Made by a program: the position numbers. DNA of 30,849 nucleotides, from contig CBFDTJ010000010.1 of assembly GCA_965612865.1 (NCBI GenBank), positions 1 to 30,849 of the forward strand, in the 5' to 3' direction. This document shows, one piece after another, positions 1-21,000 of this stretch. The number at the start of each line of letters is the position of its first letter. Positions within the stretch are counted from its first letter, which is position 1. Source of the stretch: an uncultured bacterium (GTDB lineage: Bacteria; Caldisericota; Caldisericia; B22-G15).

Positions 1-3000
1 ATTTTCTTTAAGTTTTCTATAATGTTTCCAATCTTTCTATATGTGTATTTCTCTCTTAAATCTTTGTATCCAATTTCTATAAATTTGTTGGATTCTATAA
101 AGAAGAGGTACTGGATTATGTTTGATACTCCCTCTGGAGCATCCCTATTTTTATCAATATATAAATCAATTATATCAACCTTCGGAACCTCTTCTTCTTT
201 AAGCTCTTTATTTTTCACAAGGATGTCAAATTTTTCCATAAGTTCCTTGGTTTCTTTGTGGTTTTTCACAAGCACTATTGCTACATCTGAATCATACTCT
301 ATGTCTCCTCCGCCAGTAGAGTGAAACATTGTTGGTCTCTCAATTCCCTCTTCATCAAGTTTACAACCTTCCTTGTCAAGGGCTGACACTGCAACTATTG
401 GACAATTCAATTTTAGCGAAAGCATTGCTATTTTTCCTGAAATCTCGTCGACCTTTTCTTCAAGAGTTAGATTCAAATTTTCTGTTGGAATCTTTTGAAT
501 ATAGTCAAGAAATAAAACAACTTTATCTGTTCTATGGGATTGCATAATATTGTAAGTATGGGCTTCTATTTTCTCCAGCGTATCGTTTCTCGTTCCCTCC
601 ACTATGTATAGAAAGGATGTTAATTCCTGTAGTAATTCATAGGAATTTTTGAGTTTCTCTATATTCTCTTCACTCAGGTCTCCAGAGAGTATAGTTACGG
701 GGTTTATCATGGCTTCCTGGGAGAGAATTCTCAGTGAGAGGATCCTTGCTGTTTGTTCCCAGGAGTAGAAAAGGACAGGAATTCTATCATTTTTTATAAT
801 ATTTAGTGCAAGGTGAAGGAGGAAGTTGGTTTTTCCTCTTCTTGGAGCACCTGCAATGGCATAGTAGAATCCAGGTCTTAAACCAAGCAAAGTTTTATCA
901 AGGGAAGAGAAGGGTTCAATACTATAACCATGAAATATTCTTTTCCCTTCCAGTTCCTTTATTATTGTGTCCATATGTTTTACAGATGGAACAAGTTTTT
1001 TAATAAGCCTCTCTCTTGCTATATCGTGTAATTTCTCTGCAGTCTCTGCTGCAAATTGGGCAATGTCTTCGGCTTTGTGTGGTCCTCTCCTTTCTACAAA
1101 ATCTTTCATGTCCAGTGAAATTTCTATAAGTTTTCTTTCTCCGTGTCTTATCTTTAAAATATCTATATATGAGATTATCACCGCGAGGGGTGGTGGTTCA
1201 ATTTTTTCTATTTCGTCAAGAGTTTTCTGTATTTCATTATCCAGCAGCCCCTTCTTTTCAAGTTGCCTTTTTACAGTTTCAAAATCTATAACACCAATTT
1301 CTGCTCTTCCTTCATATATGTCAAGAACTGCCGATAGGATCAGTTTCGTCTTGGAATTTTCAAAATAATCTGGATTAAACCCTTCAGAGAAAGCTCTGGA
1401 TATTGTAAAATTATCTGCAATGAACCCCTTTAGAATCTTTTTTTCAAGTTCTTCACTCATGGTTTCATTATACAATATTTCAAAACAAAAGAAACAATTT
1501 ATTTTCTTTTATATCTAAAATTTGGAAGGATTGGTTTATAAAATTAGGAGGTGAAAAAGATGAAGAAAATCATAATAATGACTTTGATCATCTTACTACT
1601 CGCTTCAGGCTTTTGGGTAAAGCGGGTAGAGGGAGCTTTAACAGGTGTGACATTTACTGCTGTAAATCCTGGTGGACAGAATGCGCAGGGCGATGATACC
1701 GCAGGTAACACAGGTGCCCACTGGCAGGTTACAATAGACTTTGATGACAATGGAAATCTTCTAAAAAATGGAGACAAAATAACAATTACGTTTCCATCTG
1801 GATTTGATTTCTCCTCTTCTACAATAAATTTAACCTCTTTTGGGAGTGTCACCGTCTCCACTTCATCTCATTCAGGAAACACTATCATTATTGATATCAC
1901 AAGTGATCAGAATTCTGGTGAGACAGGAAGCGTAACTGTTGATATAACAAATGCAAAAAACCCAACTCTTGCCGGGAACATGACAGGAACAGTGAAGGTT
2001 GATTACAATTCAGTATCAGCCAGTGAAACAAGGAGTGGAAGTATTTTAATCATTCCTGACCTTATATCAAATATCACAATAAATCCGCATCCTTGGTATA
2101 TGTCAATAGGAGAGACCAAAACATTCATAGCAGAGAGTTTCGACCAGTTTGGAAATAAAAGGACAGGTGTGCTTGGTTTATATGGGTGGGAGGATAAATT
2201 CAATTGGGAAATTGAACTTAATACTCCGCCCACAGGATCTGGTGTCTTTACCACCTCAGCCAATAATGTAGATGAAGTGACAATTCAGGCAACAGACTGG
2301 GGACATTTTAGGTTGAAAGCCTTTTATCCTCCCAGTGGTCCACCTTACACCATCTGGGGAGCTTCAGATGTCTATGTAAGGAGTTATGTTACTCCTGCAA
2401 GGGTTTATGTTAATCCCCCATATGCCGGGAGTCCTGCTGAATACGAGATAAGATTTTCACTTGGTCCAGGTGGAGGGCTTGTTGGCGGTGTTGATTGGAT
2501 AGAGATAACTTTTCCATATAACACATATGTTCCTTCAGGGATCTGGTATTATGATGTTTTAATCAATGGATATCCGGCAATTACCCATTATGTTTATGGA
2601 AGAACGGTAAGAATTACAGTTCCTTATACCTTTTCAGGAGGGGCATACATAGTGGTAACTTTCCCTCTTGAAGCAGGGATTACAAATCCAACTCGTTCAG
2701 GTACATACAGATTAAGAGTTTCTACGTCCAAGGAGCCAACTGTTGTAAGTTCATATCCATATGTAATATACTCGTCTGTCATATCAAGGCCGAAGGTTGA
2801 AGTTATCCCAAATGTAGTTACCGCAACAGCTGAGTACACTATCACTTTCAAAACGGGACCATCTGGAAGCCTTAGAGAGCATTTCGATATTATTAGTGTG
2901 AAATTCCCATCTGATACTTATGTTCCAGATTTAATAAGCGAAGAGGATGTAAAGATAAATGGCTTTGACGCTTATGAGGTTTCAACTTCAGGAAGAAAGG

Positions 3001-18000: not shown

Positions 18001-21000
18001 ATATAAATTAACTATATATACCTCCCAGGATAATCAACCAGTGGATACGGCACCATTTGACATAATAAAGGAATCACAGATAAAAGATGTGCTTGCCTCA
18101 GTTGACCCACCAACTGTGGGTAAGGTAGCAAGATGGGAGATAACTTTCAAGACTGGTACTCTTGGAGGAATATCCACTGGTGGAAAGATATGGATAGAGT
18201 TTCCAAATGGAACTGTTGTTCCTGGTTCAATACCCAACGGGACAGTTACTGTAGACGGAGTAACAGCAGTTACTCAAAGGGTTCTTTCTTTAAAGATAGA
18301 GATTACTTCTCCAAAGGATATACTTCCTAATTCTACAGTTAAAATTGTGATAACAAAGGATGCAGGCATTAAGAATCCAACCTCTCCTTCCTCCACCTAT
18401 AAGGTTAAAGTTTCTACAACAGCAGAGAAAACACCAGTTGAATCTGCTCCATTTACTATCTACCAACCACCAGTTTCCTCTCTAAAGATAGAGCCTGATA
18501 AACCAGACGGACTTTCAGGTTTCTACATAACAAAACCAACCATAACCTTATCTGCTTCAAGTAACTACGATCCTTCTCCGAGGATATATTATCACTGGGA
18601 TACAGCAAAAGATGTTCCATACACAGGTCCCATTACTCCTCCTGAAGGTGTACATAAACTTTATTACCACGCAGAGGATAGGTTTGGAAATATAGAGGAT
18701 GAGCATGTAAGAGAGTTTAAAGTAGATACAAAACCTCCTGTTATAGATCTTATTCAGCCTGAAGATGGAAGCTTTGTAAAGGATAAGCAGGTGAAGGTGA
18801 TAATTTCATCTCCTGAGGACCTGCTTGATGCAAAGATAAATGGAAAGAAGATGATAAAAGGAGCTCAGGGAAGATGGAGTTTAACAGTTGCCCTTAAGGA
18901 AGGAGAAAACAATTTTGTGATTAAAGCAAGAGATCTGGCAGGAAATGAAGCTGAAATTTCATTCACCGTTTATCTTGATACCACACCGCCAACTGTAAAA
19001 ATTATTTCACCGAAGATGGGTGGACTTGTAACTACAAGAAGCACTACTGTAATAGGAGAAACGGATCCGAACTCAAAGGTTCATATAAAGGTTAGTGCAA
19101 TAACAGGAATTATTTATGAAGATGACACATTTGCAGATAACCAAGGGAAATTCCAGTTTACTCTGACAAAACTTCCTCCAGGATTTATAGGAATTACTGC
19201 AACAGCGGTAGATCCAGCTGGAAATGAGGGCAAAGTGGTATCCAACTTTATACATAAGGAGACGATACTTTTGTGGATAGGCAAGCCTGAAGCAATGATA
19301 GATAACGAGAAGACGTATGTTGATCCAGATAATAAGAATGTTGTTCCATTTATACTGCCACCAGGTAGAACTATGGTTCCAATTAGATTCATTTCTGAAG
19401 CGTTTGGAGCAAAAGTACTCTGGGACAATGCCACAAGAACAGTTACGATAATCTGGGGCTCAACCACTATAAAATTAACAATTGGAGTGTATACAGCAAA
19501 GATTAATGATAAAGACGTAAAACTGGATGCACCTCCAATAATTAGAGAGGGTAGAACTTTTGTTCCAATTAGATTTATATCTGAAGCATTTGGTGCACAG
19601 GTTCTTTGGGACGGTACAGAGAGAAAAGTAACTATTATATATCCACCTTCAGGGAGCTAGGGTTACACCCTGCTCCCTCTATATTGATTGAATCAAGGAG
19701 GAAACATGAAGAAAATTGTTTTAAGTGTGTTAGTGATTTTACTTGTTCTCGGCTATTTTTCAGGGACAGTCTCGGCAAGTAATTTATATCAGGTGAAGGT
19801 TACACCTGAAGTACCTGGAGTGGACAATCTTATAAATAACATGGATGCGAGATGGAATATTTTAATTGACAATAGCGGAGGCAACCTTCTAATATCAGGA
19901 GACAGAATCTATATAGAGTTTCCTTCAGGTTTTGATTTAACATATGCAAAATTTGTATCCCTAACTCCAATAACTGCTTCAGGGATTTCTGCTTCTGGCA
20001 GTGGAGTAGTTTTATCAGGAAATCAGATCATAATACCTGTTACCTCTGATCAAATCTCTCTTGGTTCATTCAGGATAAGTATTGAAGGAGTGCATAATCC
20101 AGCAACACCTTCAGGCACTTACATGGTAAGGGTATGGACTACAACATCCACAGGTATAACTCTTGATGGACCAACATACTCAAATCCATTCCTTGTTGTT
20201 TCAAGTTCTTATGGTTACAATCCACCCTATTATCCTCCCACATATCCTTATGTTTCAACGGTGGTTATAACTCCTCAATATGTTAATCTATCAGTTGGTG
20301 CATCCCAGTTATTTACTGCTCAAGCTTATGACTCTTTTGGTAATCCAATGTATGGAGTAACTTACATCTGGAGTGTATTACCAGGTAGTGGAAATGGAAC
20401 TATTACCTCAAATGGATATTTTACTCTAACTTCTCCGGGAACTGTAACAATAAAATGTGAAGTTTTAGGATATGGAGTTGTTGGTTATGCCTATGTAAAC
20501 TCCTACTATCCCTACCCATATCCCCCATACTATCCTTATTATGTTAATAAGGTAGAAATTACTCCAGCATCAGTTAATATGACTCCTGGAAATACACAGG
20601 TTTTCACAGCGCAGGCATATGATCCTTATGGTTATCCTTTAAATGTAACAAATTATGTATGGACTGTAACCCCTGTTACTGCCGGAACCTTTTATGTATC
20701 TTCTGATACCAAAACCCTAACATTCACTCTCTCTTCTTATTCAGGAGTGGTTACAATTTCATGTCGTGTAGATGGAAGTGGGATAGTAGGATACGCTTAT
20801 ATAAATGCTTATACTCCATCTTATACTGATACTATAGTTATCACTCCTCATGATGCATATGTTTCTCTATCTAACCCAACTCAGGTTTTTACCGCTGTAG
20901 GATATGATTCTATTGGAAACATTTTATCAGGAGTTACTTATACATGGACTCTAAATCCGGTTAATGCAGGAACTTTAACTGTGAATCCCTCTGATACAAG

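Follow-up and report, generated by a model that had tools for sequence, protein, structure and literature searches.

Architecture and distribution of the Cu_amine_oxidN1 module suggest a non-covalent envelope anchor in single-membrane Caldisericia

The Cu_amine_oxidN1 module (PF07833, hereafter CAO) most likely serves as a non-covalent envelope-retention module in single-membrane Caldisericia, a reading to which we assign a probability of roughly 0.65 and which rests on domain architecture and distribution; the presence, position, fold and copy number of the module were observed. The broader proposal of the first-pass annotation, which regarded CAO as the general anchor of the phylum, is partly supported. 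Following Sec export and cleavage by signal peptidase I, CAO would keep its passenger attached to the cell wall, probably by binding a wall glycopolymer or an envelope layer in a role like that of SLH elsewhere, and such retention would be reversible rather than a fixed tether. Usually located behind one or two Glucodextran_B Ig spacers, this foot would hold proteases, propeller enzymes, an amidase and a cohesin scaffold, while N-terminal copies would hold two ABC solute-binding proteins that have no lipid anchor.

The DNA analysed (the window) is a stretch of 30,849 nucleotides from an uncultured member of the Caldisericia. It carries three co-directional open reading frames, each with a signal-peptide-like N-terminus, which are listed here with their domains:

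1551..5117, + strand: ORF1, 1188 aa; signal peptide, tandem Ig-like domains, OmpL47-type barrel, two Glucodextran_B Ig domains and C-terminal CAO
2781..4181, + strand: ORF1 Ig block, residues 411-877; three Ig-like domains of ~130 aa and a small barrel (alignment A2)
4479..4715, + strand: ORF1 Glucodextran_B Ig domain, best stretch at residues 977-1055 (E 8.9e-19)
4722..5114, + strand: ORF1 CAO two-repeat module (E 2e-33); GRTxVPxR-type motifs at residues 1088 and 1153
5202..12944, + strand: ORF2, 2580 aa; signal peptide, long repeated Ig-like array, Glucodextran_B domains and C-terminal CAO
12351..12521, + strand: ORF2 Glucodextran_B Ig domain, best stretch at residues 2384-2440 (E 4e-20)
12549..12941, + strand: ORF2 CAO two-repeat module (E 1.1e-30); motifs at residues 2481 and 2546
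12998..19660, + strand: ORF3, 2220 aa; signal peptide, Ig-like array and C-terminal CAO
18746..18979, + strand: ORF3 Glucodextran_B-like Ig domain, residues 1917-1994 (26.1 bits, just under the 27-bit cut-off)
19265..19657, + strand: ORF3 CAO two-repeat module (E 7.9e-37; alignment A1); sequence used for the AF2 model

Three giants of 2200-2900 aa in a row had been described at this locus; the three adjoining CAO frames were found, but ORF1, at 1188 aa, is shorter, so that two of the three fall in that range. Residues 411-1188 of ORF1 share 36% identity with residues 1426-2219 of ORF3, and ORF2, which contains internal repeats, is 33% identical to residues 345-1221 of ORF3. At E<=1e-20, the ORF1 Ig block was detected in 73 of 93 Caldisericota genomes and in 0 of 9 genomes of the second class (f7); it is class-wide and common to CAO proteins of about 930-1190 aa. 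The AF2 model of this block (pLDDT 94.4) returned PrgB Ig-like domains, antigen I/II C123 and an S-layer protein as best Foldseek matches. Full-length orthologues of ORF3 (61-93% identity) were found in the window's family only, and the order ORF1-ORF2-ORF3 is kept in genomes G008, G006 and G002. The three products appear to be paralogous fibrous proteins of tandem Ig-like domains with CAO as their C-terminal foot, and would extend outwards from the wall as fibrils of an adhesin-like or sheath-like kind.

Profile searches of this genome (87.6% complete) identified 28 above-cut-off PF07833 matches in 25 open frames, in agreement with the 25 genes annotated previously; these frames include two fragments (C71:6258-6431 and a C68 frame with an internal stop), and eight are located no more than 100 nt from a contig end. 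A signal peptide was seen in 20 of the 25, the remaining five being fragments or cut at the 5' end. As had been stated, the module is C-terminal in most frames, where the passengers are unrelated secreted proteins, and immediately follows the signal peptide in four (L016, Peripla_BP_2; L002, Peripla_BP_6; L011, PQQ propeller; L013, TSP3 repeats), while in the amidase L020 it is internal, between AMIN and Amidase_3. The C1, C25, PQQ-propeller and cell-wall amidase passengers named earlier were all recovered by domain search (Peptidase_C1, Peptidase_C25, PQQ propeller, Amidase_3), together with an NHL propeller; catalytic amine oxidase domains were absent from this genome's CAO proteins. Glucodextran_B, annotated on 11 genes and always before CAO, retains that order, but its count rises to 13 CAO proteins (one below the cut-off). 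A 216-aa protein on C61 holds only half a module. The pI of the module ranges from 4.5 to 10 (median 7.4) and thus provides no simple electrostatic signature of acidic-polymer binding.

The module is a compact unit of ~125 residues composed of two half-repeats with the motif IG..a.vNG...lD..P.I..GRTxVPxRF..E.LGa.V.WD. For the CAO of ORF3 (131 residues), AF2 predicted a monomeric two-repeat domain (pLDDT 96.1), and alignment A1 revealed R35, T36, R41, E45, W53, R97, R103, E107 and W115 as near-invariant; conserved Arg, Trp and Glu would be typical of glycan-binding sites. The only close solved fold is domain 1 (the 'stalk') of the E. coli copper amine oxidase (PDB 1OAC), which the ORF3 module matched in Foldseek over 74 aligned columns (rmsd 1.3-1.4, 30% identity), with a sequence match at E 1.1e-5. 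This domain corresponds to ~74 residues, roughly half of the 131-residue module, and is part of a periplasmic enzyme of a double-membrane host, whereas the Caldisericia module belongs to a single-membrane host; the place of the E. coli domain in a periplasmic enzyme was counted against the anchor reading. We know of no anchoring role for this founding member of the family.

An anchor would be needed in these cells because BamA (Omp85) was detected in 1 of 93 Caldisericota genomes (control set, 7 of 14), sortase in 0 of 84 genomes of the window's class, and sortase, LysM and PG_binding_1 gave no match in profile searches of this genome, as the lack of Sortase, LysM and PG_binding rows in the first-pass annotation had indicated. 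Caldisericum exile is treated as having a Gram-positive-type envelope without BamA in PMC4104836. That CAO is this anchor is suggested by its terminal position on unrelated secreted passengers, and by its occupying the same slot as SLH in three architectures, namely on solute-binding proteins, on cohesin scaffolds and behind Glucodextran_B. In this genome L010 (NHL+Cohesin+Glucodextran_B+CAO) has a counterpart in L032 (Cohesin+SLH), a pair that mirrors OlpC versus SdbA/OlpA in Clostridium thermocellum, and the domain that comes after Glucodextran_B is CAO in this genome but SLH in G084, a genome of the sister class. In the SLH/CsaB system, based on a pyruvylated secondary cell wall polymer, SLH is likewise N-terminal on solute-binding proteins, C-terminal behind Ig spacers, and also present on cohesin scaffolds and amidases; the folds differ, however, SLH being a three-prong spindle and CAO an unrelated two-repeat beta/alpha domain like amine oxidase domain 1. 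A pyruvyl-transferase family gene (PF04230) was found in 87 of 93 Caldisericota genomes and in 11 of 11 f4 genomes, but as PF04230 is a broad family its retention in f4 does not tell the CAO ligand.

Surface binding by CAO is as such not new, having already been reported for OlpC of C. thermocellum, which binds the cell surface by a PF07833-like module according to PMC4582956 (citing Pinheiro et al. 2009). This PF07833-like cell surface-binding module (CSBM) is also described for the cellulosomal scaffoldins OlpC and ScaG (the latter of Acetivibrio cellulolyticus and C. clariflavum), which it reportedly retains at the cell surface (PMC4582956, PMC3413522), and PF07833 is noted on wall hydrolases (bioRxiv 10.64898/2026.09.23.753664), including those of Firmicutes (PMC4137172). 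Like L010, the CSBM scaffoldins are secreted and cohesin-adjoining and belong to the same Pfam family. In clostridia, however, the module occurs on one or few genes beside many SLH anchors, whereas CAO is the commonest anchor-like module of this genome (25 frames, and at least 111 in a related 2.2-Mb genome); moreover, in this genome it is usually C-terminal behind Glucodextran_B and also present on solute-binding proteins.

PF07833 was found in 93 of 93 Caldisericota genomes, this one included (1 of 14 well-known control genomes), which upholds the phylum-wide occurrence claimed previously while amending its figure of 91 of 92 other genomes. SLH accompanies it in every Caldisericota genome, and the present one holds eight SLH matches in four frames, equal to the four SLH genes annotated. 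Genomes of f7 have 5-18 CAO versus 28-67 SLH matches each; those of f4 have at least 45-54 CAO matches (best 44 of 151-278 candidates scored) and 2-4 weak SLH matches, and the complete 2.2-Mb f4 genome G065 has at least 136 CAO matches in at least 111 frames (150 of 251 candidates scored), the match figures not being gene counts and the f4 CAO figures being lower bounds. CAO and SLH counts are inverse between families, a pattern drawn from very few independent comparisons (in essence f7, f4 and all others), and this opposition argues for CAO as an anchor. The boldest claims did not stand: CAO is not dominant throughout the phylum, since f7 is SLH-dominated and has sortase in 5 of 9 genomes, nor does it take the place of most SLH, which is dominant in one class. 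Similarly, the surface proteome is not readable from one domain, as this genome also has SLH proteins, dockerin-bearing enzymes (S8, C25 and PQQ types) and five proteins that share one C-terminal motif of uncharacterised kind. CAO as a feature special to Caldisericota was ruled out by 16 matches in a Coprothermobacterota genome of 1.3 Mb.

Among the 17 solute-binding proteins identified in this genome, 14 possess a Cys lipobox, two CAO (L002 and L016) and one SLH in place of CAO (L031, with SBP_bac_5), and L002, L016 and L031 each head a complete ABC importer operon. In L002 and L016 a signal peptidase I type signal precedes CAO and no Cys lies behind the hydrophobic region, which confirms the annotated absence of a lipobox from these two and its presence in other binding proteins; CAO has not replaced lipid anchors, as 14 of the 17 are still lipoproteins. 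Lipoprotein anchoring answers the same need in single-membrane bacteria, the binding protein being kept near its permease. The linker between CAO and the binding domain spans only about 15 residues, which would force any rigid wall tether to lie near the membrane permease. The CAO-LivJ fusion is kept in 54 of the best 120 relatives listed, the keepers named being Caldisericia, Cryosericum, Coprothermobacter and one MAG labelled Nitrospiraceae; of the 66 without it, those named are all Thermotogota, whose binding domains are 50-59% identical, and each of the four N-termini examined from that phylum has a signal peptide without Cys. Thermotogota have an outer envelope, which would retain a free binding protein, and the location of the named unfused relatives in such bacteria is a further argument for CAO as an anchor. 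A CAO-BtuF-type fusion is kept in 42 of the 120 relatives listed for it. Genome G084 encodes SLH+Peripla_BP_2, SLH+Bmp and three SLH+SBP_bac_5 proteins; the first is 26% identical to L016, which points to same-family parallels and not to an anchor swap between orthologues.

Were CAO to attach to a protein layer, either an S-layer or the sheath, resembling an outer membrane, that electron microscopy shows in Caldisericum exile, it would still be an anchor, albeit one with a protein receptor and no binding of peptidoglycan or a secondary wall polymer. The Pfam description of Glucodextran_B refers to S-layer contact, which was counted in favour of such a receptor, and the wide charge range of CAO is no less compatible with protein contacts than with an acidic glycan. 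We nevertheless consider this rather unlikely, as no candidate receptor protein was identified and the location of CAO within the peptidoglycan amidase points to the wall itself, as do the Firmicutes wall hydrolases (PMC4137172) and the description of OlpC as a binder of wall polymers (PMC4582956).

It is improbable that CAO serves to oligomerise its passengers or link them into a lattice, although the PF07833 region of the Paenibacillus lautus CuZnSOD mediates homodimerisation (crystal structure 8IMD, PMC10432803), which was counted against a wall anchor, and although the C61 protein has only half a module. The P. lautus region lies behind the signal peptide of a secreted enzyme, like N-terminal CAO, but it is a single half-repeat paired between two chains, whereas in most copies here a single chain contains the two half-repeats; the Foldseek match of ORF3 CAO to 8IMD was weak (E 0.27), and the closed monomeric AF2 domain suggests that the pairing surface would already be used within the chain. 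Oligomerisation would also leave unexplained CAO on permease-docking solute-binding proteins, the inverse relation to SLH and the anchor need of cells without an outer membrane. Binding to an external substrate (an environmental polysaccharide or protein polymer), by which CAO would aim enzymes or adhesins at food in the manner of a carbohydrate-binding module, would suit the many proteases, propellers and adhesin-like arrays among the passengers, and a glycan ligand would be in keeping with the conserved Arg, Trp and Glu; it is, however, very improbable, since it does not account for CAO on solute-binding proteins of importer operons, in a cell-wall amidase or in a cohesin scaffold of which the counterparts known elsewhere are attached to cells, nor for the complementarity with SLH.

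Downstream of the three giants, the window continues with the following genes:

19688..21823, + strand: ORF4, 711 aa; secreted Ig-like protein without CAO, starting 28 nt after ORF3
21820..22845, + strand: lipoprotein with CarboxypepD_reg and SBP_bac_3 domains; LLSSC in the N-terminus, overlapping the ORF4 end
22838..23779, + strand: M23 peptidase (cell-wall endopeptidase family), the last gene before a shikimate operon

The N-terminus of ORF4 is paralogous to that of ORF1, and the lipoprotein gene may belong to the same operon as ORF4.

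The window (contig C10) belongs to a 1.42-Mb assembly of 111 contigs (G000; 87.6% complete), one gene product of which has a 98% identical counterpart publicly labelled 'Caldisericia bacterium'. Caldisericota are deep-branching and barely cultured, and their envelope is puzzling in that an apparent outer layer is present without outer-membrane assembly machinery. Four co-directional genes, separated by gaps of 85, 54 and 28 nt, lie behind a minus-strand DnaB gene, and each encodes a protein with a signal-peptide-like N-terminus:

1551-5117, plus strand: ORF1, 1188 aa, with a Cu_amine_oxidN1 (PF07833) module, here termed CAO, at the C-terminal end
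5202-12944, plus strand: ORF2, 2580 aa, with CAO at the C-terminal end
12998-19660, plus strand: ORF3, 2220 aa, with CAO at the C-terminal end
19688-21823, plus strand: ORF4, 711 aa, without CAO

Applying the curated PF07833 cut-off of 24.2 bits for membership, the modules of ORF1, ORF2 and ORF3 were recognised at 115 bits (E 2e-33), 106 bits (E 1.1e-30) and 126 bits (E 7.9e-37), respectively, and a fold comparison of the ORF3 module likewise pointed to domain 1 of the E. coli copper amine oxidase. The CAO-ended giant proteins and the genome-wide CAO set put forward in the first-pass annotation were confirmed, the profile search of G000 returning 28 matches above the cut-off in 25 open frames. 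In 22 of these frames the module could be aligned over approximately 125 residues as two half-repeats (alignment A1; C61, which has only a half-module, the partial C68 and the fragment C71 were omitted), each roughly of the form IG..a.vNG...lD..P.I..GRTxVPxRF..E.LGa.V.WD...r.vtI. P28, P39, P91 and P101 are invariant in this alignment, while the nearly invariant positions include R35, T36, R41, E45, W53, R97, R103, E107 and W115. The ORF3 module was modelled by AF2 as a single closed domain (pLDDT 96.1), for which Foldseek returned 1OAC as the best match (E 1.3e-5, 74 columns, rmsd 1.3); a sequence search also matched domain 1 of the E. coli copper amine oxidase (E 1.1e-5), which is the only clear solved relative, the N-domain of the Paenibacillus CuZnSOD (8IMD) being a weak Foldseek match. 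A dimerisation role is attributed to the PF07833 region in the one structural study outside the oxidases (PMC10432803). The region described there is a single half-repeat, whereas most copies in G000 hold both halves in one chain, and in our reading the CuZnSOD dimer rebuilds between chains what CAO builds within one. The complex predicted for two copies of the ORF3 module scored 0.00 (mark 0.42), which speaks neither for nor against a homodimer. A uniformly basic surface was considered as a charge signature of CAO and was ruled out, since module pI ranges from 4.5 to 10.

A signal-peptide-like N-terminus was identified in 20 of the 25 CAO frames, the other five being cut or fragments, and the module mostly occupies one chain end of these secreted proteins, the arrangement seen for cell surface-binding modules such as those in OlpC and ScaG. 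It is located directly behind the signal peptide in L002 (Peripla_BP_6), L016 (Peripla_BP_2), L011 and L013, and its passengers are diverse:

Passengers and architectures of CAO proteins in G000
L001: Peptidase_C25
L007: Peptidase_C1 and a lectin-like domain
L006 and L010: NHL propellers
L009 and L011: PQQ propellers
L004: five fn3 domains
L017: giant protein, 2855 aa
L005: giant protein, 2327 aa
L020: domain order SH3_3-AMIN-CAO-Amidase_3

No match to the SLH profile (PF00395) was obtained on the CAO proteins scanned and SLH resides in four other frames, so that CAO is to be regarded as an analogue of SLH and not as a member of its family. The true number of CAO frames may exceed 25, because eight of them lie less than 100 nt from a contig end and two unfinished genes (L035 and L036) break off within the same Ig spacer sequence. 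Several contig ends (e.g. the C16 start, C79, C31, C93, C30, C77, C11, C44 and C36) translate to common short strings such as MYKRQ, LLYTSPSPRD and SLIHISEPTRL, which look like leftover sequencing adapter and give rise to spurious gene starts or ends, as in L001, L014 and L015.

We consider it probable (roughly 0.65) that CAO serves as an envelope anchor in Caldisericia, a reading supported indirectly, by the architecture parallels with SLH and by the scarcity of other anchors. The strongest evidence for this role is the positional interchangeability of CAO and SLH, which was observed in three slots: (i) solute-binding proteins, some of which carry CAO or SLH in G000 and SLH in the sister-class genome G084; (ii) cohesin scaffolds, with CAO in L010 and SLH in L032; and (iii) the Ig spacer, where Glucodextran_B is followed by CAO in G000 and by SLH in G084 (L090). 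The second slot belongs to a set of secreted proteins of G000 that score above the profile cut-off for Cohesin, Dockerin_1 or both:

C75:3-3230: L010, Cohesin (54.5 bits), Glucodextran_B and CAO
C25:2893-3915: L032, Cohesin and SLH
C3:10390-13482: L021, Cohesin and Dockerin_1
C33:224-2968: L022, Cohesin and Dockerin_1
C2:30984-32657: L024, Dockerin_1

The Dockerin_1 proteins combine S8, Cohesin and Dockerin, or PQQ, Cohesin and Dockerin, or C25 and Dockerin, and the cohesin carriers include one CAO-footed (L010) and one SLH-footed (L032) protein. G000 therefore has a putative cohesin-dockerin system, the predicted cargo of which consists of proteases, with cellulases not among it. The occurrence of L010 beside L032 resembles the pairing of OlpC/ScaG with SdbA/ScaF in cellulosomes, as set out in PMC3413522 and PMC4582956.

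Across the families of the phylum, genomes rich in CAO matches tend to be poor in SLH matches, and the reverse:

CAO and SLH matches per genome in Caldisericota families (f7 being the second class)
f7: CAO 5-18; SLH 28-67
f1-f3: CAO 2-36; SLH 1-21
f5-f6: CAO at least 48-55 (44 of 95-186 candidates scored); SLH 5-12
f4: CAO at least 45-54 (44 of 151-278 candidates scored); SLH 2-4, weak

This trade-off is only suggestive, because the contrasts are few and phylogenetically nested. The anchor had been proposed to be phylum-wide, a scope that has to be narrowed to the class, given that f7 has 5-18 CAO against 28-67 SLH matches. In the complete 2.2-Mb f4 genome (G065), at least 136 CAO matches were obtained from 150 of 251 candidates scored and were counted as at least 111 distinct frames, which we estimate, with an assumed gene total, at roughly one gene in twenty. 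A pyruvyl-transferase gene was detected in 87 of the 93 genomes, including all 11 of f4; this census is silent on the ligand of CAO, neither tying it to a pyruvylated polymer nor setting it apart from one, because the family is broad and some SLH is found everywhere. The only PS_pyruv_trans (CsaB-like) gene of G000 (C11:6318-7066) is split over frames 6318-6878 and 6884-7066, the gene being a single frame of approximately 334-338 aa in relatives. In f6 (e.g. G075:C66:1952-2785 and G071:C207:8607-9440), the pyruvyl-transferase domain lies in frames of approximately 975-1030 aa, as compared to approximately 335-350 aa elsewhere, which suggests a predicted fusion protein.

Two CAO-bearing solute-binding proteins had been claimed to lack a lipobox, and this was borne out, as neither L002 nor L016 has a Cys within its N-terminal 45 residues. 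Both possess a binding-protein domain and adjoining permease and ATPase genes: L002 (CAO-LivJ type), with a Peripla_BP_6 match at E 9.4e-75, precedes two ABC_tran and two BPD_transp_2 genes, and L016 (CAO-BtuF type), with a Peripla_BP_2 match at E 2.7e-43, precedes FecCD and ABC_tran genes. Together with the SLH-OppA type (L031), which has OppBCDF next downstream, each of the three non-lipoprotein binding proteins of G000 opens a complete importer operon. Additionally, 21 of the 25 SLH frames of G084 were scanned, and five of them encode solute-binding proteins on which SLH is N-terminal (three SBP_bac_5, one Peripla_BP_2 and one Bmp). Among the best 120 of 815 relatives of CAO-LivJ, the fusion is kept in 54 and absent from 66; the named keepers in this set are Caldisericia, Candidatus Cryosericum, Coprothermobacter proteolyticus and one MAG labelled Nitrospiraceae, whereas the named relatives without the fusion are all Thermotogota, and four Thermotogota N-termini that were inspected have a signal peptide without Cys. 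This pattern would fit a protein that is free in the periplasm where an outer envelope exists and tethered in cells that have none. For CAO-BtuF, 42 of the 120 relatives listed retain the fusion. Since the linker between CAO and the binding domain is short, the module would act close to the membrane, or as a reversible retention device in the wall zone. An anchor swap between orthologues was also considered and rejected in two cases, which are parallels: L016 (CAO and Peripla_BP_2) and L086 (SLH and Peripla_BP_2, from G084) are only 26% identical, and L015 and L090 have only the Ig spacer in common. In f4, OppA-type proteins of 733-768 aa (L115, G065:C1:439000-442300; L116, G062:C10:51000-56500) bear an N-terminal extension of approximately 200 residues without SLH or CAO Pfam matches at E<=0.01, in which TRAE-like motifs are visible by eye and which may be a diverged SLH.

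With regard to envelope type, Omp85/BamA was absent from G000 and was found in one of the 93 Caldisericota genomes (itself 80% complete), the control being positive in 7 of 14 genomes; by this marker G000 does not have an outer-membrane envelope. The census agrees with Heinz and Lithgow (PMC4104836), who detected no BamA in Caldisericum exile although its envelope appears outer-membrane-like under the microscope, and with bioRxiv 10.1101/2021.05.31.446380, in which Caldiserica are placed among lineages that retained SLH/CsaB after losing the outer membrane. Two secreted proteins of approximately 710-720 aa (C64:385-5489), with N-termini resembling TonB-dependent receptor plugs (…VVITGTKTERR…) and an aromatic last residue, are unexpected in a genome without BamA, and C64 may be a contaminant contig.

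The view that CAO takes the place of other anchors was not sustained, as it would operate alongside SLH (four frames), lipid (14 binding proteins) and dockerin (three proteins). SLH gave eight matches in G000, distributed over L032, L031 (SLH and SBP_bac_5), a protein truncated at the 5' end that combines beta-helix, DUF11 and SLH, and a 212-aa protein with a weak match. Secreted proteins were predicted with a crude in-house script, yielding 104 candidates without CAO and no shorter than 250 aa, of which 39 were scanned, these being picked by eye (the largest and the binding-protein-like) and not a random sample. A Cys lipobox was present on thirteen solute-binding proteins among the 39, ORF5 of the window bringing the number to 14. 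The solute-binding proteins of G000 therefore comprise 14 lipoproteins, two with CAO and one with SLH, and lipid anchoring is clearly not replaced. The supposed absence of sortase held for the window's class and that of LysM for G000, with sortase in none of 84 genomes and no LysM or PG_binding_1 match in G000 (at 87.6% completeness), but sortase is present in five of the nine f7 genomes. Five secreted proteins of DUF11, DUF2341 and beta-helix types, namely L026 (C74:2004-5669), L027 (C24:6440-9823), L028 (C5:24993-26582), L029 (C24:16389-17780) and L030 (C24:5091-6422), have in common a C-terminal motif of approximately 30 residues, roughly DWYSSGRCxLIFNDRREGIxIKxGGR, which has no Pfam or NCBIfam match and may be another sorting or anchoring signal.

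The proposed anchoring function has a precedent in OlpC and ScaG, whose 'cell surface-binding module' is the nearest described function (as cited in PMC4582956), and the PF07833 domain has been noted on Firmicutes wall hydrolases (PMC4137172 and bioRxiv 10.64898/2026.09.23.753664). Nor is CAO confined to Caldisericota, as one 1.3-Mb Coprothermobacterota genome has 16 matches. Three features look new, namely the scale of the CAO expansion in Caldisericia, its apparent trade-off with SLH and the predicted tethering of solute-binding proteins by wall-binding modules; no description of these was found in the literature covered, outside of which most subscription journals lie. A bolder reading, which we regard as unlikely, is that CAO took over from SLH as the main envelope-building device of Caldisericia, reaching at least 111 frames in one family's 2.2-Mb genome with SLH down to a few diverged copies, that CAO-footed giants such as ORF1-ORF3 form the outer-membrane-like sheath of Caldisericum exile, and that a protein-bounded pseudo-periplasm retains wall-module-tethered binding proteins without lipid anchors. 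If CAO were the main retention device, it would provide a one-domain handle on most of the exposed proteome of the class and a second, structurally unrelated counterpart of SLH for studying surface retention after outer-membrane loss, and solute-binding proteins could be held by wall-binding modules (CAO or SLH) and not by lipid; CAO would, moreover, lend itself readily as an affinity tag with which uncultured Caldisericia cells could be labelled or enriched.

Turning to the giant proteins, Glucodextran_B Ig domains precede CAO in ORF1-ORF3 (the ORF3 match being slightly below the cut-off), residues 411-1188 of ORF1 are 36% identical to 1426-2219 of ORF3, and residues 794-1634 of ORF2 are 33% identical to 345-1221 of ORF3, a relationship that makes the three mosaic paralogues; the N-terminus of ORF4 is similar to that of ORF1. 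Full-length orthologues of ORF3 (61-93% identity) are confined to the window's own family, and the order ORF1-ORF2-ORF3 is kept in G008, G006 and G002. At E<=1e-20, 73 of the 93 genomes, none of them among the nine of f7, contain a block comprising ORF3 1426-1898 (ORF1 411-877), the carriers of which are mostly CAO proteins of approximately 930-1190 aa (alignment A2 holds 22 copies, two from the window and 20 chosen among the best search rows). The AF2 model of this block (pLDDT 94.4) consists of three tandem beta-sandwich domains of approximately 130 residues and a small barrel, assigned to the OmpL47 type by NCBIfam, and its Foldseek matches, which are generic, are Ig-like strings of Gram-positive adhesin stalks (PrgB, antigen I/II C123), an S-layer protein and mastigonemes. 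As both model and Foldseek give tandem Ig-like domains, ORF1-ORF3 are read as predicted long beads-on-a-string fibrils with CAO as the foot. The term 'adhesin-like' is fair for these proteins, in which no binding head was found.

ORF1-ORF4 possibly constitute one operon, and no convincing terminator was seen in the gaps between them. Scans of the window gave counts near those of shuffled sequence, with 57 promoter-like sites against 63.9 expected and 21 terminator-like sites against 13.0 expected, and Rfam returned no match in the whole window at gathering thresholds; for 12998-19660 no RNA holder was listed. Downstream of ORF4 follow a lipoprotein (CarboxypepD_reg and SBP_bac_3) and an M23 peptidase, each overlapping the preceding gene, and then a shikimate-pathway operon. 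At 23789-23816 there is a perfect sigma-70-like promoter (TTGACA, 16 nt spacer, TATAAT), and at 23910-23930, directly 5' of chorismate mutase (23952), a terminator-like hairpin (9-bp stem, T run); the two may represent a leader or attenuator. In the shikimate operon, EPSP synthase is divided between two ORFs (26129-26671 and 26723-27412; profile positions 2-179 and 200-415), which a frameshift, a stop or an assembly error would account for. Elsewhere in G000, one open frame (C13:2-20167) encodes 6722 aa up to the contig end; its start resembles a signal peptide, and it has no CAO match.
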